NCBI GenBank assembly: GCA_964187785.1
Contig: OZ076409.1
Span: forward strand, 14,758,001-14,822,000
DNA from: Amphiscolops sp. MND2022
Lineage: Eukaryota
Direction: 5' to 3'
Length of the DNA stretch: 64,000 nt
This document shows, piece by piece, positions 5,308 through 45,287 of this stretch. Position numbers and translations under genes: made by a program. Below the pieces are notes generated by a model. The model was given only the letters and a program-made list of their open reading frames with translations. It was not told where the DNA came from and did not search any database. Position 1 is the stretch's first letter. Each line of letters begins with the position of its first letter.

Positions 5308-6636
5308 TCAGCTGATGATTTTGGTCACAACAATTGCATCCGAGTCGGTACCCTCTTTCCTTGGATCTTTCCAGGTTTCCAGAGTTTCCATCCATGAATC
5401 GGGATTAACAATGGTAGTCAGCTCCTCACTATCTGAACATCTTAATTTCCGTCGCTTCCGATAAAACCAACAGCGGAGATATTCGATATGGACCTCTGTG
5501 ACGTCAGATAATGCTTTAAGGCTATCCGTTGTAGGTGAATGGTTGAGTTTGAAAAGGGTCTCCAACAATTCAGTTTTTTCTGGGCTCAGTTCTTGACGAC
5601 CACCAATTATGGGCTGCCTTCGAGGTCTACACACAAAGGATCGATGACTCAAACCCATGCTTTTACAATAGTCAAACCACGGTTCCATTTTGTTCAGCAG
5701 TGTTTTCGCATGTCCAATTGAAACGTTCTGCTTCTCAAGCTGCGAAATCTGTGTCTGAAATTTAAAAACCAAGAAAGACTTATTGGAGAAAACGATTTCA
5801 GAGTAGAAACCATTACGTGAAAAAGTAAAGATTTCCCTTTTAGGTCATATGGTTGAAACAACTCTTTATTGATGATAATTCTTTATAGGAGACATCCGTC
5901 AAAAACCGGGATTTTTCGCCTTTGCCCGTAAACGATCATGATAGACAGTCGGATTTGAGTCTCGAACATTTCGACAAGAAAAACATTTGAAAAAATTTCT
6001 AAACAAAAAATGGACCCTGAATGGCCAAAAGCGGGCACGTTAGGTCTAAAACAATTGGATGGTTGACTTCTATATATAGTTGTGCAGTCTAGCAGAAACA
6101 TTTTCACCACCTTTCGTGAAGACGAAATTAAGATGGATAGTTTAAAAATCCCGGGTTGGCAAACGGCTGTTATTAGACCTGAATAAAATTCGTGCAAATG
6201 TTTCTTTGATTGTTAAACAAAATGATGGTAAAACGAGGGACGGATAATCGAAGTTTTATAGTTTCAAAAAATAAGGGAAATCTCATTCATATTCACAATT
6301 TTATTTACGACAATACTATCATACAAAATACCTAACGACCAGCTGAATGGTCCTAAAATTAGATGATGATCAATTACCTGAGAAACATCAACGCTGTACT
6401 TTGTTTTCAAATGTGTAGACAATTCCAATTGGGTCATACTGAAGGCTTGACGGAACAGTTCAATGAGCTCCATGCGTTGTTTCAAGGAGGAAAAATCGGG
6501 AGAGCAACCAAACGTACTGAAGGGTAGGTCCTTCACTTTCGTCTTTTGCTTCACATGTTTGACAGTAATGTGAAAGGTTTGATAATTGCACTTTCGTTTA
6601 ACGATCGGTCGACATTGTCCCACAATTTGCCTCTGC
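5308..6636 (-). CDS. Highly divergent POU-class homeobox gene; exons 6636-6378 and 5754-5308
   Basis: Splicing the phase-0 GT-AG intron 6377-5755 gives FRQAFSMTQLELSTHLKTKYSVDVSQ|TQISQLEKQNVSIGHAKTLLNKMEPWFD (POU-specific-like). It is followed by the homeodomain LSPEKTELLETLFKLNHSP...YLRCWFYRKRRKLR. Confidence 0.8.
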
Positions 6637-13142: not shown

Positions 13143-14682
13143 GATCGGCGCGTTGTGGACTTTGCGAAGACATTCGGCGAAGTCTGGACTTGTTTACTTG
13201 ATTTGTCATGTTCGAGCCAAAAATGCTGAAAATTACAGATTTGGTAGTAATACGATTTTCAAAATCGAAAAGATAGAAAAGCGCAATTTATGAGAACCTA
13301 TAGCTCTATCGTATGTTATTGTTGCATTCGTTTTTTTTGAGCAAAAAATTGCCAGCGCAACGGTGCTCCCGAATAAGTTATACTATAATTCAAATGAACA
13401 TCAATATCGAAGTGCCAATTAATTAATAGCCATTAAGGAGTACATTGAAGTTGAGTGCCTAGCAGCAACAAAACGAGATCATTTCACTTTGTTTGGATTA
13501 TTCTAATGATACCAGCCGCCGTCAAATTTAGTTGAAAATATATTTATACGCAGCGGCCTGTATTCGGAAAACAGGAGAAAATAGCCATTCATGGCAATAA
13601 AATACCTAGGAATTAAGGTTTCTACATTCCCTGATTTCTATTATTCAAAAATAGTTACATGAGCCTTTCGTAGGAGTGCGGAAAACACTTACTTCTGGTG
13701 CAATTTATGTCTGCGAAGATCATTTTCATTCAAATGTTTGACGTTCCAAAAATTGGTATATTGATGATCATTCAGTTCTTGTAGCGCTGCATCAAAGGTA
13801 ACACGTGGTTTAAAAATTTTTTGAATTTCGTTTTTGGTTGAAGCCACATCGGGCTCTTTTGCCAAAGGTTGAGCACATCGTAGGGGCTTCAGAAAGCTGG
13901 ATATGGGGCTGAGGGGAATCGGATTCATCACGAAGTTACATTTCAACCTGAAAACATTCACATTTTTGACAATATGCAGATCGACAACTTTGTGCTGACA
14001 TAAACCGAAAATAGGCGCGCTGTGCTTGGACCCGAGCTATCACAGCTGTAGGCCAGTAAAGCCCAAAATGCATGCCCAAACGAAACATGGAACGAGATAG
14101 TCCCCCAGACAACGCGAACAAAGAATATCTGAAGCGATCTACAGGGATTGTGGCTACCATGAATAGTAGTATGCGTTATCGTTTATTTCGTTTTTTGGTT
14201 GCAAACAACGGTGTTTGTCATCTAGTCTCTATATGATGACCTAAACGGAACTAGATAAATGACGACGATCTATGTCATCTGAGAGAGGTCTAAAAAGCGA
14301 TACTTCTAATTTCTCCTAAGCCTTTTTTTCTTTTTTTTCCTTTCTCTATCAGATACCAGAAGAAAGAATTTGAACTTACTCTGATGCGTATATTAATAAA
14401 TGAACGTATACAAAAGAATATTCAAACAACTAAATGAACACAGCACCAAAGGGGACCTTCCAAAGGTATTCCTGATAGGGGGAGGACCCCACAAACACAG
14501 GGGCATCAGCGAAAGACTTCGTCTGCCAGAAGTTCGCAACATATTTTGTTCTTGAGTTTCATTTAGTGGTGTTTTCCCCAAAGACTTTTTATCAAGTGTT
14601 TTCCAGTTTGAAAGCTACGAAAGGTTTCCAATCTTTAAACCTGGGAAAAAGATCAATCGTGAGAATTATAGACCTATATCAA

Positions 14683-15670
14683 TGTAACGTCTGCCACCGG
14701 GGGTGAACGGAAATGGGTCGAAAGAAATGGGTCGAATCGCCTCCTGTGCCATGGGTCGAATCTTCACCGTTTCGGAATTGGGTCGAATGGACTTGGGTCG
14801 ACCTTGAAAAATGCCAAGTTCAAAGGAGACAACATATTGATTTCGGACTATTCGACCTCAGTCAATTCGACCTAAGTTATTCGACCAAAAGGGTCGACCT
14901 AATTCTTTTCGAACTATTTCATTCGACCTATTTCATTCAACCCACTTCATGCAATCCTGCCACCGGCATGACCAAAATTTCGATGAAAAATTCGAAATGT
15001 GCGATGTCAAACCAGAAGAAAAAAGATGGCCGACCTAGCAGGAACAAAAAAAGCATGAAAGAAAAAAGAAAATACACGGAGAGCGAGCAAGAAACAGAGC
15101 ACGTGTGAAAGAGTTGCAGAAATGGATGAAAAATTGCCAGAAGATGAAGAAACATCAGCAGAAAGATCATCGGAATGTTGTGCCATCTCCTTGGGAAATC
15201 AACAACATCTGCAGAGCCTTGCCAGAGGCAAAATATGGATGATGGACTGAAAACTGTAAAGTAACTGGGGCTTATCCCCGTTTTCCCTTATTATTTCCAT
15301 ATTTCCCCTTTAGTATTTGGAAGATGTTTGACCTTCTAGGTCTTTTTATATCTTATTTGCCAAATACTATCTTTTCCAGCTGATCACCGTTTTTGACCTC
15401 GGAAGCATGTAGGAACTCGTAGGAACGCACTAGAAACCTTAGGGAACGTTTTTACAGGCTTGTGGGGCGTGTCCGGACTTTGAGAGTGCCGGTGCGTCGC
15501 TTCGGAGCTCTAACTAGAGAAGCCTCCTTAGACGTCAGAAAAGTCCCCGTAGGAGACCATTTTGGTACCAAAAACTAGTGTCTAGGTATGTAGTAAGACA
15601 ACGGTCTCCTGTTTAAGCATCCTAGGCATTGTCCCTCTTCCTAGATGTGCGTCGCTAGCCGGTCGTTACA
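14683..15670 (+). repeat. 5' LTR (contains a 257-bp MITE)
   Basis: Starts TGTAACGTCTGCCACCGG, ends GCCGGTCGTTACA; matches 33214-33944 apart from the insert and scattered substitutions. Confidence 0.95.
14701..14957. mobile_element. Mutator-like MITE (GGTCGAA subterminal repeats) inserted in the 5' LTR
   Basis: 9-bp TSD TGCCACCGG (14692-14700, 14958-14966); absent from the 3' LTR; GG..CC ends; inverted GGTCGAA/TTCGACC arrays. Confidence 0.88.
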
Positions 15671-15686
15671 TCTGGAATAGTTTTTA

Positions 15687-15704
15687 TGGCGACCACAGAG
15701 GGAT
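15687..15704 (+). promoter_or_regulatory. Primer-binding site, tRNA-Arg(TCG)-like
   Basis: TGGCGACCACAGAGGGAT is close to the reverse complement of the metazoan tRNA-Arg(TCG) 3' end; it lies 16 nt after the LTR. Confidence 0.75.
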
Positions 15705-18662
15705 ATTTTTCATTTTGCGTATAAGTAGGAGCAACTTCTGCTTTCCGGCCCCGAAGGGTCCAGATCTAGGAAAACTTATGGGAGAGTCCTAGATTATTCT
15801 TATCGCCTTTTTCTGGCCCTTTGGGCTTTGTACTAATGCTGTCCCTGCGTTTTCCGCATGTTTCCGAGGTCTACTTAGAAAAATTAAAGGTTTCTGACAG
15901 TGTACCCCCTTTAACCTTACTAAAGCCTAATAAAAAAGCTGTTCCGGCCTATCCGGAACGTGTTTTAAGGGGTTTTCTAGCTTGATTTTAGCTAATTTGC
16001 AATGTATGGGGACAGAGAGGACGAATGCTGAAGGCTTCCACCAGCTGTGCTGACGTGACGACGTTTGCAGTACGCCACGTCAAACGGGTGAAATCGTCCA
16101 TTTTCTTATTTTAACGGCCCAAAAAGAATATTCCCAGGCCTATTCCCATTACAACTAACTGAGAAAAATACCCAAAGGGTATTCCGATCAGTTATTAAAA
16201 AATTTGAGCTTGAAAACCTCGAAAATAACGTTATTTATAGCTCAAATACCAAAATTTTCAATTTTGAAAGCCAATATTTCGTCAAAAAGAGTGAGGCCAG
16301 TGGGAATACTAGAAAAACGTTCCAATAGACCCCCTTGGTCAGAAACAAAATTTTTTGTGGGGCCAATTTTCCAAAAACAGTGAGAAATTCAGCGATTTTT
16401 GTTTAAAAATTGTCAAATTTGGCCATTTTGACCCAATTTGTTAAGGGCAAAGCATTGGACATTAGCTTCCAAGCTTCTGAATCAGCCCAAAAACCTTTTC
16501 CCCTAGCTTGGTAGTACGAAACACTATTGCCAAAAAGCTTTTTAAGGCTCCCCAATAGAAATTGAAACTTTAACAACTTTTTTCTCTTGATATACATAGA
16601 CCTGAGTAGAGGACCCCATAGACCTGAGAGATATAACATCAAAAATAATATTTGAACGAACCCCAGCCCCCTAAAATAAGTTGTCATTTTCCATTCAGTA
16701 CTATTGGAACAATCCCGAACGTCCAAGAACCGACAGATAGAAATTTCTTGGTGAAAACACGTTATTTCAGTGTTGTTCCGAGAGTGTAGAAAGTGCAATA
16801 TGAAAATTTTTTGAGAGACCTTTTTTGGAACCTACCAGGTTTCGCTTGCCCATTTTCTGTTAGTATAAAGTATAACGTTACAAACGCAGAAAACCGCGAG
16901 TGATTCCAACCAGTGGTTGTTGAGAAATAGCCGAAAACGCGTTATTTTTGCGACATTTTGGGAACCATGTAGTAGTGCTTCCAGCACTAGTCGAAATCTC
17001 TCCTAATAGAAGCAGCCTCAAACAGATTACACCATCGTGTAGCTCACAAAGAGTTACGTTAGTGGTGTAATTTTTGTAGCGCTAGCATTACTAGTGATTA
17101 AGAAATCTTAGCCGCAGTTTTGCTCAAAAATCGTGTGAAAATGTCGAAAAAAAACTTTAGTTGAGCATAGTGCAATACCTTGCAGGTATCCCAGCACTAA
17201 AATTCTTGCATTTTCTTACGTACTGCACTAAATCCCGACGATTTATGCAATTTGAGCAGCCAGTGGCTAGCCAAAGCTGAAAAATCGACATTTTTGTGAA
17301 TTTTGACCCGTCAATGTGGTACCTCTGGTACATCAAGGTTTTATCACCTCGAATAGCCAAGTATCGCCCCAGGCACCTCGCCGCCGTGTTTTTCCAATAC
17401 CTGGGCACAAGGTACGCTCGCACGCAAAGTTTCAGGTAGCCAGGACGCCTACAAAGCGAGTTTGACCACTTTTTACAAATTACACGACATAGTCAATTTT
17501 TCAAAGAACATTATTAAAGGGCCGCAACACCCACAGGGTAAATTTTGGCACAATCGGCATTCAGTTCCCCACGATTCAATTAATGTAGTATACGGAGTGA
17601 AATTTTCAAGTCACTACGAGCCCGGGAAGTGATTTTCACCCTTCCCAGACGTGCCGATTGACGACAAATCCGCTAGTTTTGCGAAAACTGAACAGAGCAC
17701 GGCACTCTTTCAGTCCCAAACGACCCGTATAAGGACTTGAACATAACCCTTAAACATAAAGAGCACCCCCTACGCTCCCAACAGAGTCGCATTAACCGCC
17801 ATAGCAGTGCTTCCAAAACCAAGAGCCTCCAAAAAGATGCCCAGTTGACCAAAGAAATTGCGCACTTTAGTACCGAATTTGCTAAAAAAAGTGAAACTGT
17901 AGCACCATCAACGCAACAGCCTCAATCAAAGTTACCTTCCAAACTAAACGCCTTCTTCCATACTAGTTACCGAGTCCCGTTCCAATCCCCATCCATCCCA
18001 CCATACCCGAATCCGAAAGTCGGAAAGACTAGGTGAGTGACAAGCTTAGCCAGTCGAAAGAGCGCACTGCGCTTGAAACATCTATCTCGACCATTACCAT
18101 TCAACCCAATCTACCACCCACAGCACTAGCCACAATTCAATAGGCTCCTCCATAGCTTATTCCAAAGTAGATTAGCAAGTAGAACGTAAATAGTCAAAAA
18201 AAAACTTTTTCTGTTTGATAAATCAAAAATCCATTTCCCTCCACTCTGTGCAGACAGAGAACGAAACTTCAGTTAGTATTAATACATAGAATTACACTAG
18301 CCCAATTACCAAAGGTAGTACAAACTTTTTGTTAATCGCGACCCTATGATCTCACCCCAACCACAGCGCGACCACACCCATGTAATCCAGTTAATTTTAA
18401 TTTTGAAAAACTGCAACGAGCACCTGTTATTACCTTCCATCCTCTCTTTCAGGGGGACGAACAAGACAAATAAACCAAAAACACCATTGTTCAAAAATTC
18501 CCCTTTAGTTCACGATCAGAATCCAAACGCCAAAAACTAACCAGAAAGAACTGGAACCCTCCCAAAAGCTTCCATGCTACTGATCCTTTTAGTAACGTAA
18601 TAGAGGACGCAACCCGTTGGGAGACCCTTACCGACAACCCACAGAAACCAACTATTGCAGAT

Positions 18663-21106
18663 ATGTTTTCAGAACTCATGTCTGACTATATTTCCAACAC
18701 GGAACAAAACATGGAGATGACAACCGCAGCCGAACAACTCGGTTCGTCGCAAGCTTCCCCTGATAGTACTGATCCAGTGGATAGTACCGGAAGCACCACG
18801 CGAAACAACGCGTGGCCCCTTCTAGAAGTCACTGACTATAGCCTAGAGGAGTGGTTAAACTCAAATAAAAAACCCCCGTATGAAACAAGTGAAGCCGAAG
18901 AAACGGCATCACAAAACAGCAATCACTCAACTCCTGTAGCGCCCCCCGCACTCCTTCGATAAATAAGAACCCGCTGGATTCCCACGCATTAGACATTAAC
19001 GCGAATCGAAACGATCAAACCCCCTTTCTAAGCGGATACGCACAAAAAGCAGGGCCATCCACGGCACCTACCAAATCAAATGACAACCAACCAACACAAG
19101 TGGAAGACAACCCATTGCGGTACGTCTTTAGGACACCTCCATCAAGAAACCTGGATCTTGTCCCAAGACAAATAGACAAACCAAACTACACACCTAACTC
19201 CAGAGCCAGTGCAGGCACGGCCCCAGACTCGACCGTAACCAAGATCACAAAAGAATCACAAGCCGCGAGAGAAGATTTTCGAAATACCCTGGCCCAATTG
19301 TCACAAGTACATTCACGATTGTCACGAGAAAATACTGAACACGTGATGAGAGCTGATGTCATTATGAGGGACATGGATGAAATGAGGAAAGGCCTGTTAG
19401 AAATACAGGCTGAAGGACGTCAGAGCCAAGGAAGATTGGAAGCATCCATGGCCTCTCTCAATGACTTGATAAAACAAAGAGAAAACATGGCAGACACACG
19501 CATGGCCGAAATGTCCGCAGTGATGAAAGAAAGAGATCATCAAGCACACGAACGGATGAAAATGATGTCAGACCTCATGCAACGCAGAGAGACTGACGCA
19601 AACACCAGAATGATAGATCTGATGACCACGATGAAGGACCTGACATTAGGAGTGAGAGCAATGGCAGCCCAAACTGCAGCGGCTCAGGCAAAAATAACGC
19701 CAGCGGCGCCAATGACCTCTCACTCAGACGAACTGCCTTCCACCAGCACTGCCCCAAACCCAACACAAGCCACCTACCGCAAAATAGACCAGTCCAACGC
19801 CGAGCAAAATGAACCTCTGAAGTTGATACCACCTGCAACATAGAAAAAAGATCAACCACGAACCAACAAGATGATGAGAGTAATCAGAACAGAATCCTGC
19901 GATGTGGGCACGGACCCACTAACCAGTGTCTCATTTGACCCTTTTGCTCGTGGTGCATCAACAACGGGAGATTATTGTTCACCCGCAAGCGGCATGACTA
20001 CAAGAGAATCAAACTATTATACCGCCAAGACCAACATCAGCGAGAAATCCTCCAAGCAAGCATACTTAGATTTGATCCCGCGGCCAGTGGCAACTAGCAC
20101 GCAGCGAAAATCCACGACAAAGAGAAACTTAGAACAAGACAACGACGAGATGGAACAGCTTCCAGAAACGCCAAGCGCAACACCCGACACCCCAAGAACT
20201 AGCCAACGACAAGCATTGGCGGAAGCGATTTCAACCGCATTGTCCAAAGGCTTGGAACCGCTGCTCGCGGTGAAAGAATCGAAGAACAAACCCACGAAAT
20301 ATCGAGGGACCAAGGACGGAAACGCCGACGGATGGATGATGTTGATGAAACGTCACTTAGAGAAGGCACATGCCAGAGCGACTCCCCTCGACAAGGCCTG
20401 GAATATAATAGAGTATCTAGGACACGAGGCCCGAGACTACATCACCAATAAATCCGAGGCGGAAAGAGACACCGACGAAAAAGTCTTTACATTACTGGCA
20501 CGACGATTCGGAACTGGGTCAAGCAAGATCCATATACAGCAACAATTCCGAACACGCAACCAGAACAATGAAGAAGACTACATGCAATATCTCGATGCCC
20601 TCGAGGGTCTACGCAGCCAAGGCTACCCTAACGAGGAGGTGATCGTTCGCAGATACGAAATAATGCAAAAATTCATCGAAGGTGTACGCAACTTCGAACT
20701 AAAAAGAAACCTCGCACTGATGTATGCGCAAGAACAGTACGTTGAAGCACCTCCAACAGTAGAAGCGCTTCGCTTCACTGTTCAAAAATACCTGCGCATG
20801 CGCGGTTCTAATCGTCCAGAGAATTATCAAATGGCTCCGCCTCAACAATCTCAGCCTCCGCAACCGAATCAACAACCGAAATTGCCCCAGACAATTCCAC
20901 CACCTATACAGCAACCCCAACAAGTTCCACCTCCACCACAATTGGCACCCTACCGACAACAACCCCAACGAGCATGCTTTAACTTCGTGATCGATTGCCC
21001 ACTCAAAGACCATGCACGAAAACCAATACAACAACAAGTAAATTCTTGCCACACAAGCCCATCTGGTGGATGGACTTGCCCTTCACAACCACACGGGGGT
21101 GAATAA
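18663..21106 (+). pseudogene. gag: Gag (long low-complexity/coiled-coil N-terminus, capsid domain, damaged Zn knuckle)
   Basis: KPTKYRGTKDGNADGW...RFG...FRTRNQ...YLDALEGL...FIEGV is a Ty3-type capsid pattern. CFN-FVIDCP is a knuckle with a deletion. In-frame TAG at 19841-19843; upstream frameshift. Confidence 0.85.
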
Positions 21107-24100
21107 CGAAGTACACCCAGCATCACTACCTATCCAAGGGACTGTAGCCTTCTGTATCAATTGTGGATGCACTGAGCATTCCGCATCAGAATGTATAGCC
21201 CCAGAATACCCTAGACAAGAAGAACAAATTAGGGCAACATGGTATGCTCCGCATACCAACCAGTTTGATGGCGTACCGCAGGATGATCAAGTTAGAGTAA
21301 TCTCGGTAGCAGAGGCCGGAGGCCCTTCTCGTCCCGTCGTCATTACTTGCGGCGAAAAACAAGTGCTTACCACGCTAGAAGCACCCGCCCCGGACTGCAC
21401 CGAGACACTCATATCTATTCACTTACTCCTCTCGGCTGAACTAAAATCGCGTCCCGAACTGACACTAGCGCAATTAAAGGAAGACCTGTGTAGAAACACC
21501 AAGTATACAATCACCGCTCGACCGTTACCGCACTTCACCCGGGAGGACGAGACCAAATTAGCACCAATCCAAAAAGTGAAGACAATTTCCCCAGTACCAG
21601 TGGCCATTAACGTAGACGGGGTCGACTTGAAATTTGACGCCATCGTAGTAGTAGAAGGTTATTTCCCACAGGGATTATACCTGGGTCGCCAGGAGTTGAG
21701 GTGTTATAACATCGGAGTGCAAGACACTCAAGGGGAAGCTCGCATTGACGAACGAGCATCACTGGTAGTTGCCTTTGGCAGCAACCTCCAGGAACCCATT
21801 CCCTTATATGGTATGATCGACACGGGTTCAGGTGTCTCTATTCTCTCCCTTGCCGCTTACCAAAAGATTGCTTCCGCCCATTCATTGAGCCTCATGCCGT
21901 ATGACGTCCAGCTATACGCAGCAAACGGCAAAACCATAACGACTGTCGACATGGCTGAGAGTGTGAGCTTCCAATTGGGTAGCCACACACTGAAGACCAA
22001 CTTTATTGTCATAGTTGACCACCTAGGAGCTGAAGACTTCCTGTTAGGACGCAACTTCTTACGCACCTATTATGTCCTCGTGGATTTGACCGCAATGAGG
22101 GTCACAATCCGAGACCCAAAAACTCCACGCCATTTCAAACCTGACCATGAGGTTAGTGACCACGAACCTTCGTTGGTAGTGTCCACCGACAAAGTTGTAC
22201 TAGGACCTTTCGAACGTAAGTTGGTTAGAGCACAGGTCATCACACAGGACCCCAACCAATATCGTTTCCGTAATGTAATGATACGCCCCAGCGGGATGTA
22301 CAATCGAAGTTCCTTTATTTCAGAAGACACCCTAACTTCAGTGGGAGACGACGGCACGGTGTACCTAACCATAAGAAACAAAACCGCTACCGAAAACGTG
22401 CAAATACCAAGCAAAATTGTCCTTGGCAAGGCGGAGCCTACCATTTTTATGTTTAGACCGGTTTCGGTCGACCAAGCCGATGGAACCTCCATGCCTCTGA
22501 TAGAACAAGTTAATAATAATAACATTGTTGATCTTGACGACACAAGCAGTGAATTAGGTTCTTTCGCACAAAACTTCCTATCGTCTACTGAGTTGTCGGA
22601 AGAGGAAATGTCGGAAAGTGAAAAACGCGCCCAAACCAACCCCAACCTATTAAAACCAATACCAGGCCCTGACCTACCCTCTGTCCTTTCGTCTTGGGGG
22701 GAGGGAGCGAGAGAACAATTAGCAGAAGTTTTAAACGAGTACGACGACCTCTTTATGAAACATAAGGCCGACATAGGAAAACGTACAATAGCAAAATATC
22801 GTATTGAATTAGAACCACAAGCTATCCCCCACAATGAGGGCGCAAGGCGAATGTCTCCAGACAAGGCTGCCAAAGCCAATCAAGAAGTAAGGAACCTCTT
22901 AGCCTTAGGCTTAATCCAACCCTCCTACTCGCCTTGGGCTGGTGGAATAGTAATGGTAAAGAAAAAGACAGGCGAACTTCGCTTCTGTTGCGACTTCCGA
23001 CCGCTAAACGACGTAACAGTAAAAGACGCATTCCCCCTTCCCAGAATAGATGAAAGTCTGTCCAGAATAGGTAACGCTAAGATCTTCACGAGCATCGACC
23101 TAGCGTGGGCCATTTGGCAAATACCACTGAATAAACGCGATAGAAGGAAAACAGCATTTGCCTGTGAATTGGGTTTGTTTGAATGGCAACGTATGCCCTT
23201 TGGGCTATGCAATGCATCCGCCACCTTCCAACGATCCATCACTAGAGCGCTACAAAAAATCCAACAGAGACACGGGAGTGTCGTCATGGCCTACATTGAC
23301 GACATAGTGATTGCAACCGAAACAATGGAAGACCACATAATGAGAATCAAAGAAGTATTCGAATGTCTCAGAGAGGCAGGCTTCAAAATGCGAGCAGAAA
23401 AGTGCGACTTCATGCGCACGGAAACCAAATATCTGGGACGAATAGTATCAGCCGATGGAATCAAGCCCGACCCAGAAGCAGTGGCTAAAATCCGAGAGTG
23501 GATGCCACCAAGGAACGAAGAAGAACTCCAAAGCTTCCTAGGATTCGCCAACTACTATCGCGATTTCGTCCCATTCCACGCCGCCAAGGTGCAACCCATG
23601 CAGGAATTGCTAAAGAAGAATCAACACTTCAGTTGAGAAGAAAGGCACCCAGAAGCCTTCGACTCGGTGAAACAAGCCCTATCCGACGCTACCACTCTAG
23701 CTGCACCGAATGAACAAGGACGGTTCGTGCTAGATACTGACGCCAGCACGGTAGCGATCGCAGGTATTCTACATCAAGAACAAGAATACAATGGCAAAAC
23801 CATCCTGAGACCAATAGTATACGGCAGTAAATCACTGACCAAGACCCAACTGAACTATGGTGCCCCCAAGCTGGAAATGTATGCAGTGTTTTACTTCGTG
23901 GAGAAATTCCACTCATACCTAGCAGGTAGAGAGTTTACGCTTCGCGTAGACAACCAAGCCCTGTCATGGCTCAAAACTTACTCCATGGACCAAGCCATGA
24001 TTGGCCGTTGGATCGCACGTCTAGACCAATATCATTTCAAAACGATCCACAGACCGCGTACGCAACACCGAAATGTCGATGGACTCAGCAAGCGCACCAA

Positions 24101-25891
24101 CGACTATTTTAATCTCGAACAAATCCTTAAAAAGCCACCAGAGGTAAGCGAAGGATTCAATTTCATGTCACAAAAAGACTACGACGAACTCCCCACAGTT
24201 CCATACTTCGACAAACGTGGTCATCTAATTCCAGACCACCCAAAACTCCCTCCAGAAGCTCGAGCTCAACTACCCCTGTTATACATTCTTCAGAAGAAAC
24301 GAAAGAGCAAACAGCCCGAAGAGCCAACCAGGATTACCCCCTGGTATCCCGAAACTCAATGGGAAACCACACCGACTCTTGAAGAAAACGAACGACCTAA
24401 CCGAATTTTGAGCATAACCACAAGAGTGCCTCCGGCACGAATAGACACCACTAAACCCGATCCAACTCTAAGGTCACTCCCTGTCGAATGTCAAAAACAA
24501 GCAGACGTTTTGAGAACCATCGATGCAGAACTGCACGAACACCACCTAACCAAATATGGCCTCCGAGACCTACACATGGCTCAGAATAGAGACGTACATC
24601 TCTTGGCACTGAAGAAACTCATGAAGAACGAGCCCTTAGAAGGTCCAATGTTCCCAGATTAAATACAAGACTTCGCCAAGAGGTATTACCATCAAAAAAA
24701 GGATCTACTTATCTTAAACCCTGACGACATACTCTGCGTCAATTACGTTCCTCAACAACGTGCTCTCCACGTACGCCTTTGCATGATAATCATGCCGCAA
24801 CTTTTCCAACACGAAATCTTGTATCGAGCGCACGATGAATCGGGACATCAAGGCGTGGGAAAAGTGCTGGCCAGGATACAAGAACGACACACTTGGCCAG
24901 GAATCAAAAGGGACGTAGTAAACCACATCAAACAATGCTTAACTTGTCAACAAGCAAAGCACCCAGCAAAAAATCCTTGCTACCTGCAAAGCATCAATAG
25001 TAGCAATTTCAACGACCTGGTTCAATTTGATCATTTAAAGCTCTGCAAAACAGACTCTGGCAACACCGGCCTTTTGGTAATAATAGATCATTTTACCAAA
25101 TTTGCGGAAGCAGTCCCATGCGCTCACGACGAATATGACGCGCAAACCACGCCAAAATCTATCCGAAATAAATGGTTTGCCAGGCATGGCACTCCTGCTA
25201 GGATGCAATCAGACAATGCGACAAACTTCACCGCTGAGGTCGCCCAGGAACTTATGAAAGCCTCTCAAGTCACCAAAGTTACGTCTACCCCAGCACACCC
25301 CAGAGGAAATGGACTCGTGGAGCGACAGAATAAAACTTTACTCACTTTGCTCCGAGTCTACACATCGCGCAGAATGCAAGACTGGGATGAATACATTGAT
25401 GGAGTCCTAGGCGCATATAATTCCACCCGAAACGCCACTACAGGGTTTTCACCCTACATGCTCCATCATGGCGCAGAAAAATCCATCCCACTATCATTTA
25501 TATACCCAGAGTTCGCAGCGCGAGGCTTTGATTCCCAAGAAGAGTTCGTGGAAAACCTATTGGCCAGACAACGAGAAATCCATGAATTGGTTCGAAGAAA
25601 CACTCATCAAGCTCAGCTTCGGCAAAAGCTAAAATTCGACCGCCACGTAAAAGCAAAAGCGCATGCCGTCGGCGACGCTGTCTGGGTTTTTTGTCACAAA
25701 TCCCCAAAGGTGGTACTCGCAAGCTTATACGCGCTTGGCGCGGACCCCACAAAGTCACCGATGTACTACAAGATGGACGTCTCTACGTACTCGACACAGG
25801 TCAAAAAGTTCACTACGAGAGACTAAAGAAACACGTACCAGCCCCTGGGACTGGACTACTTACCAACCTTTTGGACCGGATCAAAATATAG
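21066..25891 (+). pseudogene. pol: Pol: CCHC knuckle, protease, RT, RNase H, integrase
   Basis: CINCGCTEHSASEC; IDTGS (D at 21819); RMPFGLCNA and YIDD (23292); DTDAS..E..DN; HDESGH..CLTC, QFDH..SDN..VER; WRGPH. Stops at 23634 and 24660; frameshift near 25700. Confidence 0.97.
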
Positions 25892-28163
25892 CTATCATCG
25901 CTGATCCATACGTGGAAGACACTAACGAAGAATTTACTTCCGATATCTCTAGAGACTCCTTCCTACCTGAACAACTCTCTGAGGCATCGTTCGAATTGGA
26001 ACCCACAAGACCGGTCCCTCCTCGTACCATCCAGACACGTACTCAAACTGCCCTAGAACAAGGGGTCCCGCGCAGGAGATTCAGCCAATTCGGATACCCA
26101 TCCGAATCAGACTCTGAGGCCGAAGCGCCCGGACCTCCTCCCATGACCTCTCCCTCCCAGGTAGTATTCCCCGAAATCGACGATCTAGAACCACTATTTT
26201 CTGATCAGGAGGAAATACTACCACCAACTCTCACCGAAAGCTTGGTACCATCGCCCTCTGGAACTTCAGCTCCATTACTATCTAACCCCTCACTCACAGA
26301 TACCTTAAGCAACTTCCCCCTATTTAACTAACAAACAAAGAATCCCAACAAACAGACTGATCCAATCCAAACCACTGAACCTAAAGAACATAATGTCGGA
26401 CCCGACAACCAGATCACGAGTCAAAACCCACCACCCACAACTACCAACATTAGAGGTCGACCTCGAGGCAGACCCCCCGGTCTCAGAAACCAACTACCCA
26501 AGTCATCAAGCGGAACTACTACGTCTTCCTGGAGACCAACCACACGGAAGAAAAGAGGCCCAAGAACCCAATTTTCCTCCAGAACCGCACCCAGGACACT
26601 TGACAGAGCCATGACTCTCCCTCAGATTCCTGAGAGTTCAACTCCTACTCAATCAAACCAACTAGATGATACTTCCAGACAAGCACCACGCTATCAACTC
26701 CGAGCCAACAGAACGCCAAAATATAGATGCGGAACCTGTGGTTCCCGTGACTGTAGTTGCATCCAGCTAGTCACAACGGAACCCCCGAATCAGCGACTGG
26801 CCCTGGGAGCGATGATTCCGGCTTGCGAACTCATCTTAGCACAAACAGCAAACCATCCACAACACGAAATCTTGAATATACGAGTAAAGCTACAAAAACC
26901 CAAAACCCCGCCAACCATCCGACACATCACCTTAACATTTGAGAAGACTTTTACAAGCACCGAATCTGAATCAATACCACCTCTAGAATCCACTTTGAAA
27001 GAAATGCATAAATTCTCCCCTTCTAATTGCCCAACGTATCGCTTCAAAGAATGGACAACTCATGAAAAGATGGACTTGAATTCACATTAGCCGCAACCAT
27101 TCCCCCTTTACCACCCTCATTCTTATTCGGTGAGCTAGACGATACCTGCAACAACCTCCAAATGATTCGGTGCATCACCGACAACCAACTATGGAAGAAA
27201 TATCACATCACTTCCCCTCCGGGTGACGTATATCAACCATCCACAGGATGGTGGTTCCTAGTCACTTCCCTCGACGACTCCTCATTGGTCTCACCGACTA
27301 CATTATTACTATGCCTAGAGAATCTACGCACCCTTGTAGAGACAAGCGACACCCTATGTTTTCATCTCGCCGACATTTACCGCGGAAAATTCTTGAGCCA
27401 ACACTGGTTGCAACTGATAGTCATTATCTTTTGCAGACAAACGAAGATTTGCATTTTCGACCGATTAACATACACACCCAAAACTCCAATATCTCCATTA
27501 GAAGCACTTTCCGTAATGCACAGCTGGTCGTGCATACACATGGGTAACCGCCCCCTGCAACGTACAATATGGGAAGATCGCAAAGCATTTTTTGGACACT
27601 TGATGTCGAACCCCTTAGAGAATCATGCAGCAGAAACTGGAAAATGGCTCATATCACAACCGAAAATTCGTCCAAGCCACGTGCCATGGATTACTTACTC
27701 TGACACGGATATTCTACAAGCCTCTGGCACACTAGTATTGTGTTGTCCCGCAAACCTCTAATTCCAATCGGCGACTATTCGATATATCATTCGCGAAGAT
27801 GGACAAGAAACCATCTTCCGTTTAAAACCTTCGGTTGGCATGACCATTTGCTTGCAATATTCCCACACGGCACCCTGGAACAATCAAATTTTCCTCTTGT
27901 GCACCAGAGCCTCCAACAAGCACCCACTCCTGCACGAAACCCTACATACATGCCTCAACCACCTCCGACACCAACTCCATCAACACGGAATTTCCCAAAT
28001 TCATATACCCATCTATGATCCCGAACGATCGATCAATCTCCTACCAACTTGGTACGCCACACTCCGGGACCATTTTTTCGGGTTGAATCTAGAAATAATA
28101 CTCCACGATAGAGTCTACGTTTCAATCGCATCAATTTCTCCTACTGACATCACTGCTGATTGA
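25860..28163 (+). pseudogene. Integrase C-terminal extension ending in two TARG1/OARD1-like macrodomains
   Basis: P/S/E-rich linker and CGTCGSRDCSC motif, then WWFLVTS..TLLLCLENLR..HWLQLIVIIF and DILQASGTLVLCCPANL..IFLLCTR..ETLHTCLNHLRHQLHQHGISQIHIP..WYATLRDHF, both paralleling the OARD1 pattern. Stops at 26329 and 27759; frameshift ~27070. Confidence 0.72.
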
Positions 28164-28504
28164 ATCCTCATAACTGCAGGGCCAGAGGCCAGCCCTCCTT
28201 ATTCTTCTGAAAAACCATCCCACTTTCCTTATTGACTTTCTCGATACGTGCGAACTAGTCCGTAGGATTTTTAATGACTGCACTCTATTAAGCTACAAGT
28301 CTTCCTAACACTTACTCGGTTTTTTAAGTTTTAACCATTTGTATTCCCTTCTTAACTTTTTTGATATACCCTATGAAACTCCTCTCTACTCATGTGCAAC
28401 TTGCTTTTCAGTTTTATCCTATTGCTTCGCCCTTGCGCAGCTTTCCTAACTTGCACCATCACTCACTTTCATCGATATCACCCTATTCCCTATCAGTGCT
28501 ATCA

Positions 28505-31500
28505 ATGGACTCTTCATCACGCAACCGCATGCCTGCACCCAGCAGCCAACAGAATCCCCAACCTCGTATGCCTCCTGCTAACACTCTTCCACCAGTGGGC
28601 GAGGTTATTGGTCGAATCGAACAACTAGCCTTAGTCCAACAAGCTTTACAAGATGGAGCCACCCCCACCATGATCGCTGGCTTTGCCATGATCGTAACAC
28701 AGATGCAAGCTCAAGCTGTGCACCCAGAAGTCCTGTTAACCATCACGAGTAGCATCGGGCCGCTTGAGCGTTCCGCTACCTTCCGCGATGGCGTTTGGCA
28801 TGGTTATGACTTAACTCATAATCTTATTGACCCTCGCTCCCACATGCTCTATGGAGAAACTGAAAGGCCTCCAATGGATCAGGAACGATCATTCAGAATC
28901 TCTCCCCCAACGATTCAACCTTTGTTCCAAGCACCACAGCCAACCCCCCCCCACAAACCATGATTCAGCTTCCACCCACCAAAACTACAACCTTCAGCTG
29001 CATCCTACCCTTAATGCCACCTCCAATTCCCACACCACCTATGCCTCTGGCATCCGTAAGTGTCAGCTCGCTCACTCCATCTACTTCTGGCTTTATGCTT
29101 CCTTCCACCTTTCAGGGGAGAGGGGTGCAAGTAAGCCCCATCGAATGCAACCAAGTAACAACACAAGAACAAGCCAAAGAAACTCGCCCGACAAGAAAGG
29201 TCACGTTCCAAGATGCATATGAAGAACTAATTCCCTCCACCTCCAACACCCAACCTGCCCGAAACGAACCCAGCAGACTGATAGGATTCCAAAAGGATCC
29301 AAAACTGCATGAACGGCAAAGAGAAGAACAGCGAGAGGAAAGAAAGGCCAACAATGCTCCAATAGACCTTCGCGACAAGTTGAACGCAACCAAGAGGGCC
29401 AGAGAACAAGACGGGCAATCTAGCTCAAGATCAAACAAAGGAATTCAATCCCCATCCCCTAGCCAACCAGAGACCAGGAGGCAAAAGGTCGCAAGAGAGC
29501 TACTGACTGCGGCAGAAATGAAGCAGCTGGATATAACGGCAAAGGACGCAGTGCGTCTTCAACGCGAAGTACCAAATATGCCTGATGAAGAAAATCCTCC
29601 AAGTCAGAAGTTTGCGAGCGCTAATAGCAAAGGTGACCAAACCACTCAGCGAATCATAGAGAAGGCAAACATTGGAGTAGTTTACAACAGACCAGTTAAG
29701 CCACCGATATTCACCAATGATGGAGGAGTCCCGCCATGGCTCGAGCGTCTTAGGAGAGAGTTGCAGAACAGTAACTCAACGTACCTACAACCGCTCCAAG
29801 CAACCAACGAGCGACTAGCTCGCCAGAGACCCGGCAGATTCGGAGAAAGTCATCTACAATCAAAAAACTATGCAAGGAACCCCATCACCCTGCTGCCAAT
29901 GGGAAAAGACCTATTGCAAAAAACCAGAATTGCTCTCTTCGTAGACTCGACCATCAAATCATCGTACAATTCTAACAATAATCTGATGGATTATAGACTA
30001 ATGAACATGCCCTGCACCGCACTCAATGAAATGGCTGAGGTAACCGACAAAATGCTCACACCAGCGGCGGCAGAAACAAAACCTCTTCCACCAATCCTGG
30101 TATACTCGAACGTAATCGACCACCTCGCCCTGCGAGGATCAATGCGACACTTCGATACGCTGAGCACTCGATTCACTGAAGGATTTGTCACCGACGAAGT
30201 CACCGCGTACGTAGAAACATTGTCCCATATTGCCACATTGATGAAAAATAAGAAACCAAACACAGGAACAGTCTTCGTGTCACCCCCTGGATACATCTAT
30301 CTCCCGAGAGCGTTGCAACAATTCTTGTACTTGGTGCTGGAAGCATCCTATGCAAGAGACTTGCATTTCTACATCGTTGCTCCGAACTTAAGGATCAACG
30401 TAACCACGTGGCGCCCCTGTGAAGCATCATACCCCGCATTCTTGGCTGATATATCCAAGGCTATCCAAGGATTTACGGGATATGAAGGCAACTCACAGCT
30501 TATTGTTGACGAAGCCACCGCATACGACTACGGAATGCAAATGTCCATCAGATCCCTAGATGAAAACGGTGTGCGCAAAGTATTTGACCCAAACGAAGGT
30601 GAGAGAAAACACCTGATAGATAACCTCTGGTTTGAAAGGAGGGACGAATCCACCCTCGATGAAAAGACTCACGATCCGAAATTCCATAAAGAGCTCCTAG
30701 CTCTTTTCAAGGAAACAGAGATGATCAAAGCAGAACGGACCAACACTACTGTGTTCCCCATTGCAGCCATAGCAACAGATGCCAAACTCGACATGGCGTC
30801 CCTCACCTTGACACTCTTGATGGTAATGACACGAGGCTTGGCAAGACAGAACGAAGCAGAACCAAATCACACTTACCAAACTTGGCACAAAGCCTTACGT
30901 GAAACTCTAAATCAGGTCGCCCTGCGGCTGGAAATCCCATTCCCTGTATTCCTCTACAATATCTCCCCCTTTTGGCTCCCAAGTTTCGTCCAAGCTCAAT
31001 TCAACCTCGATGACCAACAAATACGCCTATACGTGGAGGCAATGCGAAAAGCCACCATAAGCGAAATATTGGCTTATTTAATGGCGGTGGGCATGCACGC
31101 AGTCTACAAAGGACCCTCAGGCATTCTGCAGAAGCTGATCTTCGACAAAGGACACTTACCGCTCTTCAGCTACCTGGTGTATGCTCAAAATCAGAAGAAC
31201 TGGCTGCAAGCAATCTTAGGTGCCTTGGACCCAGCGGGTCCCCAACGATTGAAGAAACAACTAGAACTGAACATTGAAGCCATTCTCACGTGGATCTACT
31301 CAACTTGGGTAAATGTCGCGGTTCTTATGCATCTTCTGGATGAAAACCCGGCCATCAATAGAGAACCTAACCTTTTCCCTGGCTTCTTTTTTCCCTCACA
31401 AATGGCCACTCTCATGTTGGTGTGTTGGTGGAAACAGAGGATTTAATACCTCTAATCGCTCCCATCGTCTGGTCAATTTTTGGCGCGGTCATGGCACTGA

Positions 31501-32664
31501 GATACCCGACCCAAGTCTTGCGTGTGGCAGCGAATACTCCCACTTTTTCCATACTACACTTTGTAACGACAGATGGAACCCAACCGGAGCCCACCTACCG
31601 CGGAGTAATAGCCAACTTCAATTCTTTACAACCGCCTATGGCCTACACAATCATCAAAGACAAAAAGCAGGCAGAACACAAATTCACATCTATCATAAGA
31701 GCACGTGCGCGATGCGCCCTCCCGATGCCAATGGAATTCCATCCAATCGCATGGCTACATATCCCTCTGAACCCAGCAACAGGAGCAGCGCATTCCCTTG
31801 CAGACTGGAACACAGAAGTGATCTTGAGGATCTTAACCACTGTAATTCAGAGATTGGGCGGCAGAAGGCGAGGCGAAAAACCAAGTGGGTTACGATATCC
31901 TTATGTATGTGACATTTCAAGGATGTACTGTGATCGAACCAATCCCCGCGCACACCCATCCCATATACTAGAAGCAACGACATGCTGGTCAAAACCAGAC
32001 TTGGTGGATTTTGCAGTTCACCAGACGTCTCAGCGCATGAAGGCAAAGACGCCCTCAGTGGCAAAAGAACCAAATAGAAAAGCCTTACCAATCAGTACAG
32101 ATGTCCCAAACAATCCGCGCGCCGCGCTGGAAATTTTCTTAAATCTGCACAACAAACAAAGGGAACGAGGATGTTTCTGTTGGCGAAGACTATGCACGCG
32201 GAATTCAGAATTTCAAAAATTTGTTCGTACAGTATGGCCACCCAGAATTGGCCGACAAACTGCCCGACTTCCCACAGGGAAATACCACCGAACAAAATAG
32301 TGTAACAAATACGGCTGCCCCTGACAGCTCACAGCAAACAATACCCAGTGGGTTGCCCTCGGAAGGAACTGAGACTTGAATGGAGGAAGACCAGGAGAAT
32401 CTATCCATTGCCACAGAAACCCATGATGAACCCATTACAGACGATAATTTCACTCTGTCCGATGGCACAACCCCTACCCAAGATGAACCAGAGACGGGAA
32501 TATCGCAAATCGACGCTGCTGATATTGAATCAGAGTTGAAAAACTTACTCACCATCGACGACTCAATCCAATATCCTCCCTTGGTGGCGGAATTGTCAAC
32601 AAATCAGCAGTCAACAGTAACATCATCCGTTTCGGACTCACAACAGAGCCAAAATGATGAGTAA
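28505..32664 (+). pseudogene. Accessory ORF3 (~1380 codons if repaired) with SGNH-hydrolase-like domain at ~29925-30475
   Basis: Abutting ORFs 28361/28960/31422/32380 are joined by frameshifts (poly-C ~28945, TGTTGGTG duplication ~31415). SGNH-like blocks IALFVDS, PPILVYSNVIDHL, KPNTGTVFVSPP and WRPCEASY. Confidence 0.7.
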
Positions 32665-33205
32665 AGGAGCAACAACCGACGCTGACCCGTCTACCAAATG
32701 AAAACCAGAGCTTACCCTCAAATGGACACAACCTCATCCTAATGGTCCTAGACCATTTCATTTTTGTTGGTGCTAAGACACTGAATTCCTGAGCAATACT
32801 CATTATATGCTTAAAATTTTAGTTAAACCATGCTATGTGGGTGGGCCCTGAGCCAGTTCCCACCCTCTCCAATTCGGTATTTGACCATTGTTACCAAGAC
32901 CCGAATTTTGTTACCCCGAGAAGTGCCAGAGCACCTTCTAGAAAAAAGATTTTAACCTAAGTTCGTGGAATTGCATGTAATTTTTGAAACCGTCTGCCAT
33001 AATTTTAGTTTTGTCAAGTAAATTTTTAAGTTGTCGTTAGACTGACTGATATTAGTACGAGGAGATAACAAGGAAATTTGGAGGTTGAAGGAAAACAAAT
33101 AAGAAAAAATGAAACCTTCCTAAGGTGTTCAGAAAACTCTCAACATTGCTAGCACCCTCTGGGTATTACATCCTCTTCTTTGCCGAGGACGACAAACTAC
33201 GGCCC

Positions 33206-33213
33206 GGGGAGGA
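33206..33213 (+). promoter_or_regulatory. Polypurine tract
   Basis: GGGGAGGA immediately before the TG of the 3' LTR. Confidence 0.8.
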
Positions 33214-33944
33214 TGTAACGTCTGCCACCGGCATGACCAAAATTTCGATGAAAAATTCAAAATGTGCGATGTCAAAACAGAAGAAAAAAGATTGCCGACC
33301 TAGCAAATACAAAAAAAGGATGAAAGAAAAAAGAAAATACGCGGAGAGCGAGCAAGAAACAGAGCACGTGTGAAAAAATTGCAGAAGAAGATGAAGAATT
33401 GCCAGAAGATGAAGAAACATCAGCAGAAAGATTATCGGAATGTTGTGCCATCTCCTTGGGAAATCAACAACATCTGCAGAGCCTTGCCAGAGGCAAAATA
33501 TGGATGATGAACTGAAAACTGTAAAGTAACTGGGGCTTATCCCCGTTTTCCCTTATTATTTCCATATTTCCCCTTTAGTATTTGGAAGATGTTTGACCTT
33601 CTAGGTCTTTTTATATCTTATTTGCCAAATACTATCTTTTCCAGCTGATCACCGTTTTTGACCTCGGAAGCATGTAGGAACTCGTAGGAACGCACTAGAA
33701 ACCTTAGGGAACGTTTTTACAGGCTTGTGGGGCGTGTCCGGACTTTGAGAGTGCCGGCGCGTCGCTTCGGAACTCTAACTAGACAAGCCTCCGAACTCTA
33801 ACTAGACGTCAGAAGGGTCCCCCTAGGAGACCATTTTGGGACCAAAAACTAGTGTCTAGGTATGTAGTAAGACAACGGTCTCCTGTTTAAGCATCCTAGG
33901 CATTGTCCCTCTTCCTAGATGTGCGTCGCTAGCCGGTCGTTACA
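33214..33944 (+). repeat. 3' LTR (731 bp)
   Basis: TGTAACG...CGTTACA, direct repeat of the 5' LTR. Confidence 0.97.
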
Positions 33945-34183
33945 CAATCTTATCGGTTCTGAGCAAACTCTTTGAGCGGGTAGTTTTCGAGCGACAATTA
34001 AATTCATGCAAGTGAACAATCTTTTCTATTGTAAATTCGGATCAAAAATAAGTACACTGAATGCACTAAGGGGCATATTGGAAACGATCCGAAATGATAC
34101 CCAACTTGATGTATCCTGTATGCTATTGAATCTGTAAAAACGGCGTTGTTAGTGATATGTCGAATGATTGGCGAGGTTAAATA

Positions 34184-45087: not shown

Positions 45088-45287
45088 NNNNNNNNNNNNN
45101 NNNNNNNNNNNNNNNNNNNNNNNNNNNNNNNNNNNNNNNNNNNNNNNNNNNNNNNNNNNNNNNNNNNNNNNNNNNNNNNNNNNNNNNNNNNNNNNNNNNN
45201 NNNNNNNNNNNNNNNNNNNNNNNNNNNNNNNNNNNNNNNNNNNNNNNNNNNNNNNNNNNNNNNNNNNNNNNNNNNNNNNNNNNNNNN
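45088..45287. other. Assembly gap (200 N)
   Basis: N run. Confidence 1.

Follow-up and report, generated by a model that had tools for sequence, protein, structure and literature searches.

A 19.3-kb Ty3/Gypsy retrotransposon family with macro-like domains behind its integrase and a long, non-env ORF3

Ty3 of yeast, a member of the Ty3/Gypsy group (Metaviridae), has long terminal repeats (LTRs), a primer-binding site (PBS), a polypurine tract (PPT) and the domain order protease (PR), reverse transcriptase (RT), RNase H (RH) and integrase (IN), and several described relatives carry more than this. The bdelloid rotifer elements Vesta and Juno encode a dUTPase between PR and RT and a third open reading frame (ORF3) that is not an env but of GDSL/SGNH type, with its catalytic residues reported intact, and for which membrane targeting has been proposed (Rodriguez et al. 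2017, PMC5408684; papers are cited here and below from part of their text). The planarian Burro/GYPSM1 elements encode a polyprotein of great length, in which a dUTPase-like domain separates PR from RT and extra domains (MATH, BIR, BCL2, ankyrin, an in-frame env) lie between gag and PR; their internal region reaches 25 kb, and Gypsy elements count as 'giant' above an internal 20 kb (PMC6431247). In MAGGY, a chromodomain after IN is used for chromatin targeting (bioRxiv 10.1101/2021.11.30.470311), and the macro ORFs of fish epsilon-like endogenous retroviruses are a macrodomain precedent in an LTR retroelement (PMC4977317, second-hand, citing Basta et al. 2009). Here we describe an element in a window of 64,000 nucleotides, the whole stretch analysed, from Amphiscolops sp. 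MND2022 (assembly GCA_964187785.1, contig OZ076409.1, positions 14,758,001 to 14,822,000, forward strand); positions below are those of the window. A first-pass annotation had called this element giant and held that typical Gypsy elements carry at most an env. The latter is overstated, given the bdelloid GDSL ORF3 and dUTPase and the 25-kb Burro, and with an internal region of 17.5 kb the element is large, not record-sized.

The element (14683–33944) is 19.3 kb in length and represents, in decayed form, a family of Ty3/Gypsy LTR retrotransposons with many copies. All parts of the LTR–PBS–gag–pol–ORF3–PPT–LTR arrangement proposed for it from the sequence were located; an exact target-site duplication (TSD) was not. 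Its architecture is almost certainly a family trait, as is evident from its relatives, which were examined as proteins (the family is known here from protein sequences alone). P0108 is a natural, unbroken gag-pol frame of 3,178 residues, running from gag through the post-integrase tail and aligning along the window from gag to the end of pol, and P0129 is a natural ORF3 of 1,382 residues from the subfamily of the window copy. ORF3 proteins of 1,277–1,439 residues (typically ~1,380) occur in at least three subfamilies. The earlier expectations that intact relatives may exist, and that the domain combination marks a lineage, are thus borne out by unbroken relatives in at least three subfamilies. 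The outer parts and the core of the element are as follows.

14683–15670 (+): 5′ LTR, 988 bp including a later insertion
14700–14956 (no strand assigned): insertion of 257 bp inside the 5′ LTR, with inverted repeats like a miniature inverted-repeat transposable element (MITE), foreign to the retrotransposon
15687–15703 (+): putative PBS, a PBS-like 17-mer assigned by sequence, 16 nt past the 5′ LTR
15704–18473 (+): leader, 2.8 kb, in which no coding domain was recognised; a nested insertion may lie within it
18474–21300 (+): gag, with a coiled-coil N-terminus, a capsid region (weak PNMA match) and two zinc-knuckle positions
22956–24032 (+): RT and RH, located by Pfam
24795–25850 (+): IN, comprising zinc domain, core and C-terminal module
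33206–33213 (+): short PPT, an 8-nt purine run adjoining the 3′ LTR
33214–33944 (+): 3′ LTR, 731 bp

The LTRs are direct repeats with TG...CA termini and differ at 25 of 722 aligned columns (3.5%; Kimura two-parameter distance 0.036), which agrees with the few percent estimated earlier by eye. The differences are grouped toward both ends, with none within 15246–15492. The 257-bp insertion is missing from the 3′ LTR, is surrounded by a 9-bp target duplication and has arms (14710–14737 and 14921–14948) that are 86% complementary; it also contains internal subrepeats of 14–15 bp. Comparison of the flanks of both LTRs gave no exact TSD for the retrotransposon itself (4–5 bp being the Ty3/Gypsy expectation), because the five flanking bases are unlike on the two sides. 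Four bases to the right of the element reappear at its left end, overlapping the first LTR base, and junction decay or recombination between copies is therefore possible. The PBS-like 17-mer resembles what we take to be the 3′ end of tRNA-Arg; the 64-kb window contains no tRNA genes and hence no local tRNA to match it against.

Most of the internal region has a GC content of 44–49% with strong negative GC skew, and the flanks are at ~35–42% GC. Parts of the leader have a higher AT content than the remainder of the element, and it shows neither an Rfam match nor a notable repeat; Rfam gave no match at E ≤ 1 anywhere over 14600–34000. The copy is dead, with around 13 breaks: six in-frame stops (19841, 23634 in the RT–RH region, 24660, 26329, 27759 in the last pol domain, and 32377) and about seven frame changes (near 18.9, 21.1, 25.84, 27.07, 28.95, 31.42 and 32.2 kb).

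The domains follow the Gypsy order gag, PR, RT, RH and IN, with Pfam E-values of 8e-34 for RT, 1e-25 for RH, 8e-18 for the IN zinc domain, 6e-8 for the integrase core (rve) and 7e-6 for PR, the last below the curated cut-off. The best PDB match of the relative P0062 is Ty3 Gag-Pol (E 1e-106), and its RT ranks Ty3 (3e-75) ahead of a caulimovirus-type polyprotein (9e-49) and foamy virus (1e-32), an order of similarity and not a tree. In every feature tested save the TSD, the element is a member of Ty3/Gypsy (Metaviridae). Gag is broken in the window copy and continuous with pol in relatives. A programmed gag–pol frameshift at ~21.1 kb was considered and rejected: three relatives and P0108 continue in one frame there.

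The family is large. The protease-region query returned 561 proteins (120 of which were listed), the ORF3 query 45 related proteins, and the tail query 25 among those of 640–2000 residues, eight of which also carry integrase domains recognised by Pfam. Protein clusters hold up to 342 member sequences, sizes which are not copy numbers because many members are fragments; none of the 26 clusters looked up contains a named protein, all entries being ENA-only. The trees of the tail and of ORF3 each resolve approximately three near subfamilies, and those of the tail and the protease region have deeper branches as well. Among the best 150 of 425 representatives, mostly fragments of the same lineage, 34 carry the tail module at 30–49% identity; the tandem macro module is retained at 30–45% identity. 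By equal-sized source contig, 12 of 86 ORF3 proteins could be paired with a listed gag/pol protein, and ten of these pairs belong to the same subfamily; the two mismatched pairs sit on one 566-kb contig. Further pairings added more subfamily-matching pairs and three mismatched, some mismatches being expected because there are many copies per contig. P0026 is a natural deletion derivative in which RT is joined straight to ORF3. Scans of viral contigs yielded no relatives, and a metagenome scan yielded ten distant integrase loci (28–34% identity) that were not used. The deeply diverged tail and protease-region relatives P0239, P0241, P0164, P0390, P0422 and P0409 lie on contigs of 1.3–8.7 kb and possibly derive from other assemblies or species.

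The first-pass annotation had assigned ~6.8 kb of coding sequence to the region beyond the integrase core. The region is indeed coding, but for a spacer between pol and ORF3; its pol portion is laid out thus.

25850–27065 (+): integrase tail, part of the pol frame in relatives; contains an acidic linker, AT-hook-like cores (one to three) and a Cys4 motif
27160–27465, approximate (+): first, weaker macro-like domain
27680–28163 (+): TARG1-like macrodomain at the end of pol, lacking the ADP-ribose loop glycines
28164–28504: non-coding spacer, ~340 bp, between pol and ORF3

Pfam finds nothing significant downstream of IN and, in particular, no chromodomain in the pol tail. Each of the 28 proteins selected because they span this region has both the AT-hook-like and the Cys4 motif, a relative of 36% identity among them. 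The last pol domain very probably has a macro fold, an assignment on which the modelled structure and the sequence profile concur. With a low-confidence model as the query, Foldseek gives six rows at E ≤ 0.001, every one of them TARG1, and in a wide VIA search TARG1 (Z 8.8) and DarG (Z 8.3) rank first, a second look giving Z 9.7 with a root-mean-square deviation of 3.6 over 116 residues. The pol-tail model also matches many macro-domain proteins in a viral structure library. A 30-sequence profile of the domain, run against 177,635 PDB sequences, retrieves nothing but TARG1 at E ≤ 10 (five sequences, E 0.65–0.82), and its Atlas matches are phage clusters at 0.88–0.91, one of them a Macro cluster; a PDB profile search with a shallow tail alignment found nothing relevant. 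The preceding domain is probably a macro fold too: its VIA matches include the coronavirus SUD and X domains (Z 5.4–5.8, model residues 170–285), and it aligns to the second macro domain with an hhalign score of 26.3, where shuffles reach at most 16.0 and the reversed control 20.0. The proposed tandem of macrodomains is supported for its second member, by Foldseek, VIA and profile, and more weakly for its first.

The location of the AT-hook-like and Cys4 motifs upstream of the macro pair suggests a nucleic-acid or chromatin tether, and we tentatively favour a role of the pol tail in tethering to DNA or chromatin, though we would stop short of calling it probable. Two observations weigh against this reading. 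The AlphaFold model of the last 517 pol residues is weak (mean pLDDT, the predicted local distance difference test, of 40), and stronger selection on the second macrodomain is not apparent, because its identity between near subfamilies (58–70%) is no better than that of the acidic linker (60–62%). The best-surviving alternative, which we rate as possible but improbable, is that the protease cuts the tail free to act on RNA, whether as a ribonucleoprotein (RNP) chaperone, a packaging aid for the long genome or a silencing suppressor. AT-hooks are binders of the DNA minor groove and the tail holds the chromodomain position of chromoviruses, both of which favour the integrase tether. On the other side, coronavirus SUD macrodomains, among the best matches of the first macro domain, bind nucleic acid without ADP-ribose; in the model a long disordered linker separates integrase from the macro tail; and the RNA binding of TARG1 is independent of its ADP-ribose pocket (PMC5928194).

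The second region beyond integrase is ORF3.

28505–32664 (+): ORF3, ~1,380 residues in relatives and broken in the window copy, comprising a conserved N-terminal block, an SGNH-like alpha/beta region (~29920–30500), a helical region, a hydrophobic 19-mer (~31440–31500) and an acidic tail

Residues ~470–665 of ORF3 have an alpha/beta pattern with a conserved Ser ending the first strand. This region is 63–75% identical between subfamilies, versus 37–49% for the linker, and the balance of evidence leans modestly towards an SGNH fold. The SGNH assignment of the first-pass annotation is consistent with the Atlas leads, in which all ten best ORF3 matches that carry a family belong to the GDSL clan (0.86–0.88), and with five SGNH-type esterases among the VIA rows spanning approximately residues 30–200 of the ORF3 model (Z 5.3–5.8, which is noise level). 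Much else weighs against it. The Atlas matches are leads only; the AlphaFold model is poor (mean pLDDT 35), with its best Z (7.1) to a helical patch; and ORF3 gives no Pfam SGNH match, no relevant PDB profile match and no Foldseek row at E ≤ 0.001. Moreover, when compared with the true GDSL domain that P0045 carries, the ORF3 profile gave no match (11.8, shuffle maximum 23.5). P0045 (957 residues) is a distant ORF3 relative (hhalign 96%) in which a Pfam-positive GDSL domain lies N-terminal to the ORF3-like part; it suggests a sister lineage with an intact-looking GDSL domain in tandem with a degenerate SGNH-like part.

Should ORF3 have an SGNH fold, it is likely inactive as an enzyme, because the Gly that should precede the catalytic Ser and the late His are absent. 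With columns assigned by pattern, the Ser is kept in 26 of 26 rows without the preceding Gly, the late His is Arg in 30 of 31, and the catalytic Gly, Asn and His are all missing. The hydropathy profiles of four ORF3 relatives show one or two hydrophobic segments, of which one internal 19-mer is common to all and none is N-terminal, and these proteins contain 7–10 Cys. ORF3 is thus not an env, since the single shared 19-mer is internal and cysteines are few. An env fusion glycoprotein was rejected as a candidate on these grounds: there is no signal-peptide-like N-terminus and no env Pfam domain in ORF3. We consider it unlikely that ORF3 is instead a new fold, not derived from SGNH, that replaces env in egress or cell-to-cell spread. 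The env position of ORF3, its one conserved hydrophobic segment and the several negative SGNH tests speak for such a protein; the shared GDSL clan of the ten Atlas matches and, within noise, the five esterases in VIA speak for the SGNH-derived region, and the few cysteines and the lack of an N-terminal hydrophobic segment are unlike fusion glycoproteins.

The pocket of the last pol domain bears on the earlier proposal of virus-like counter-defence, according to which the macro pair would hydrolyse or sequester the ADP-ribose marks of host PARPs, like viral Mac1 and DarG. Residues were counted in a 30-row alignment with gaps dropped; the TARG1 numbering offset was checked against the chain range of the structure, and the loop alignment is gapless. 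The column of TARG1 G123 is Glu in 19 of 23 rows and never Gly, that of G121 is Asp in 22 of 23, that of K84 is Arg in 23 of 24, and that of D125 is never Asp (0/22). In TARG1, Lys84 and Asp125 are catalytic, and the glycine loop with G121 and G123 binds the diphosphate. Macrodomains bind adenine through an Asp at the start of the domain, and this Asp is kept in 20 of 23 rows, which, together with the nearest folds (TARG1 and DarG, both ADP-ribose erasers), argues for counter-defence, as do the macro ORFs of fish retroviruses (PMC4977317 citing Basta et al. 2009). Both loop glycines are nevertheless replaced by acidic residues and both catalytic columns are altered, and in TARG1 the G123E substitution abolishes ADP-ribose binding and catalysis whilst retaining RNA binding (PMC5928194). 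Taken together, the acidic loop residues and the G123E result count against ADP-ribose counter-defence, which we regard as quite unlikely, and for a non-catalytic binding role, with the reservation that the register at G123 depends on an alignment with E 0.65.

The region on either side of PR contains two further segments.

21320–21745, approximate (+): protease-like lobe (lobe 1) lacking the catalytic Asp motif, preceding the active protease
21798–22127 (+): retropepsin protease, catalytic motif intact
22137–22481 (+): putative degenerate dUTPase-fold domain, between PR and RT

Lobe 1 (~140 residues) is probably protease-derived. It aligns to the downstream protease with an hhalign score of 27.9 (maximum of 30 shuffles, 14.6) and E 4e-4, over 39–47 C-terminal columns only. 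The description of this lobe as a pseudo-protease therefore holds for its C-terminal half and for the missing catalytic Asp motif, which is absent in the aligned copies, but not for the N-terminal half, which the profile leaves unaligned; that the likeness spans only ~45 residues weighs against protease ancestry. On sequence grounds lobe 1 is likely dead as a second protease lobe. That it might pair with the protease in one chain and contribute a Glu, giving a single-chain Glu/Asp retropepsin, strikes us as very unlikely. Of the 22 rows that have residues near the expected catalytic position, 19 keep a Glu; its position is assigned only by eye because the N-terminal half of the lobe does not align to PR. 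Between near subfamilies lobe 1 is more conserved than PR (83–87% versus 78–79% identity), but towards the distant subfamily it falls below it (48–50% versus 63–65%).

The segment between PR and RT would, slightly on the probable side, have a dUTPase fold. It occupies the place of the dUTPase in bdelloid and of the dUTPase-like domain in Burro elements. Half of the six PDB rows at E ≤ 10 are dUTPases, with weak E-values of 0.8–1.3 over query residues 14–91, which lends some substance to the dUTPase-like label given at first. Pfam, PHROGs and a PDB profile search gave no dUTPase match for this segment, which tells against the fold, and the aligned copies show none of the conserved catalytic motifs of trimeric dUTPases. 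Among the folded parts of pol, the segment has the lowest conservation (38–55% between subfamilies).

That the region of 25.9–32.7 kb entered an ordinary Gypsy element by a one-off nested insertion, for which the missing exact TSD and the protein-only knowledge of other copies could be cited, is next to impossible and is refuted for the pol tail, because unbroken relatives in at least three subfamilies carry the tail in frame with integrase, in many independent proteins, together with an ORF3 linked by subfamily.

Our overall explanation, which we hold to be evenly poised between right and wrong, is that of a gag-pol with a tethering macro tail and a separate ORF3, likely a scaffold of SGNH fold without catalytic activity. 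By analogy with Ty3 replication, the gag-pol polyprotein would be processed by the intact protease, the element copied by RT and the copy inserted by IN. For the extra protease-like lobe, a role in regulating the dimerisation or timing of the protease is likely. The AT-hook-like cores, Cys4 motif and macro pair after integrase would act as a tether to DNA or chromatin that guides integration, as the chromodomain does in chromoviruses. ORF3, presumably the product of its own message, would use its single hydrophobic segment to aid the trafficking of particles or RNPs at membranes, a role like that put forward for the bdelloid GDSL ORF3s. A bolder account is doubtful, though it merits statement: that this is an old, undescribed Gypsy lineage of pseudo-enzymes, in which a dead macro pair with AT-hooks forms a new class of integrase targeting, the protease is regulated or completed by its duplicated lobe, and ORF3 serves egress or trafficking as a new kind of protein other than env.

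Known integrase-targeting modules of Gypsy elements are few, the chromodomain chief among them. A macro-fold pair kept over deep divergence without its ADP-ribose residues would, if confirmed, offer a new candidate for a reader module. The captured enzymes (a copy of the protease, dUTPase, macro and SGNH) are apparently all kept without catalysis, which bears on why retroelements retain accessory domains. Bilobed pepsin-like proteases are proposed to have originated by duplication of a retropepsin lobe, an origin that the duplicated lobe here would mirror. Even if the functions prove mundane, the analysis annotates a high-copy family that has no named proteins in the clusters checked.

Elsewhere in the window, an open frame at 5311–5844 (−) has a homeodomain match (Pfam E 4e-6) and may be a host gene or transposase-associated. 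Three tandem copies of a ~1,578-bp unit (98–100% identity) lie at 8.4–12.3 kb. A tandem duplication at 34.1–45.1 kb (period ~5,585 bp, with 1,093-bp sub-repeats and 142-bp inverted arms) ends beside a 200-N gap (45088–45287) and may be an assembly artefact. A separate reverse-transcriptase fragment is located at 60757–61134 (−; Pfam E 1.5e-10).

In the openly searchable literature we found no description of a pol-fused macro pair or of a duplicated protease lobe in a Gypsy element, Repbase, Dfam, GyDB, subscription papers and supplements being outside the scope of the search. The parts have separate precedents; the combination was not found described in the literature searched. The word 'macro' is absent from the main text of the bdelloid study (PMC5408684), and both 'macro' and 'SGNH' are absent from the main text of the review that covers Burro (PMC6431247). 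Whereas the GDSL residues of Vesta and Juno are intact, the SGNH-like region of the window family keeps the Ser only, and unlike the extra domains of Burro, those of the window family are macro-like and come after integrase. TARG1/OARD1 and DarG have the fold predicted for the last pol domain, but identity is only 10–16%, and the loop glycines and catalytic columns are replaced. The macro domains here are in tandem and fused to pol behind AT-hook-like motifs, unlike the macro ORFs of the fish retroviruses. With chromoviruses the family shares the placement of an extra module after integrase, a comparison of how the two may work, the module here being AT-hook-like, Cys4 and macro-like with no chromodomain. 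The closest system overall is Ty3, with which the family shares LTRs, PBS, PPT and the PR–RT–RH–IN order and which is the best solved match of its RT, far above caulimovirus and retroviruses. Unlike Ty3, the window family reaches 19.3 kb and combines a single gag-pol of 3,178 residues with an extra protease-like lobe, an integrase tail of ~800 residues and an ORF3 of 1,380 residues.

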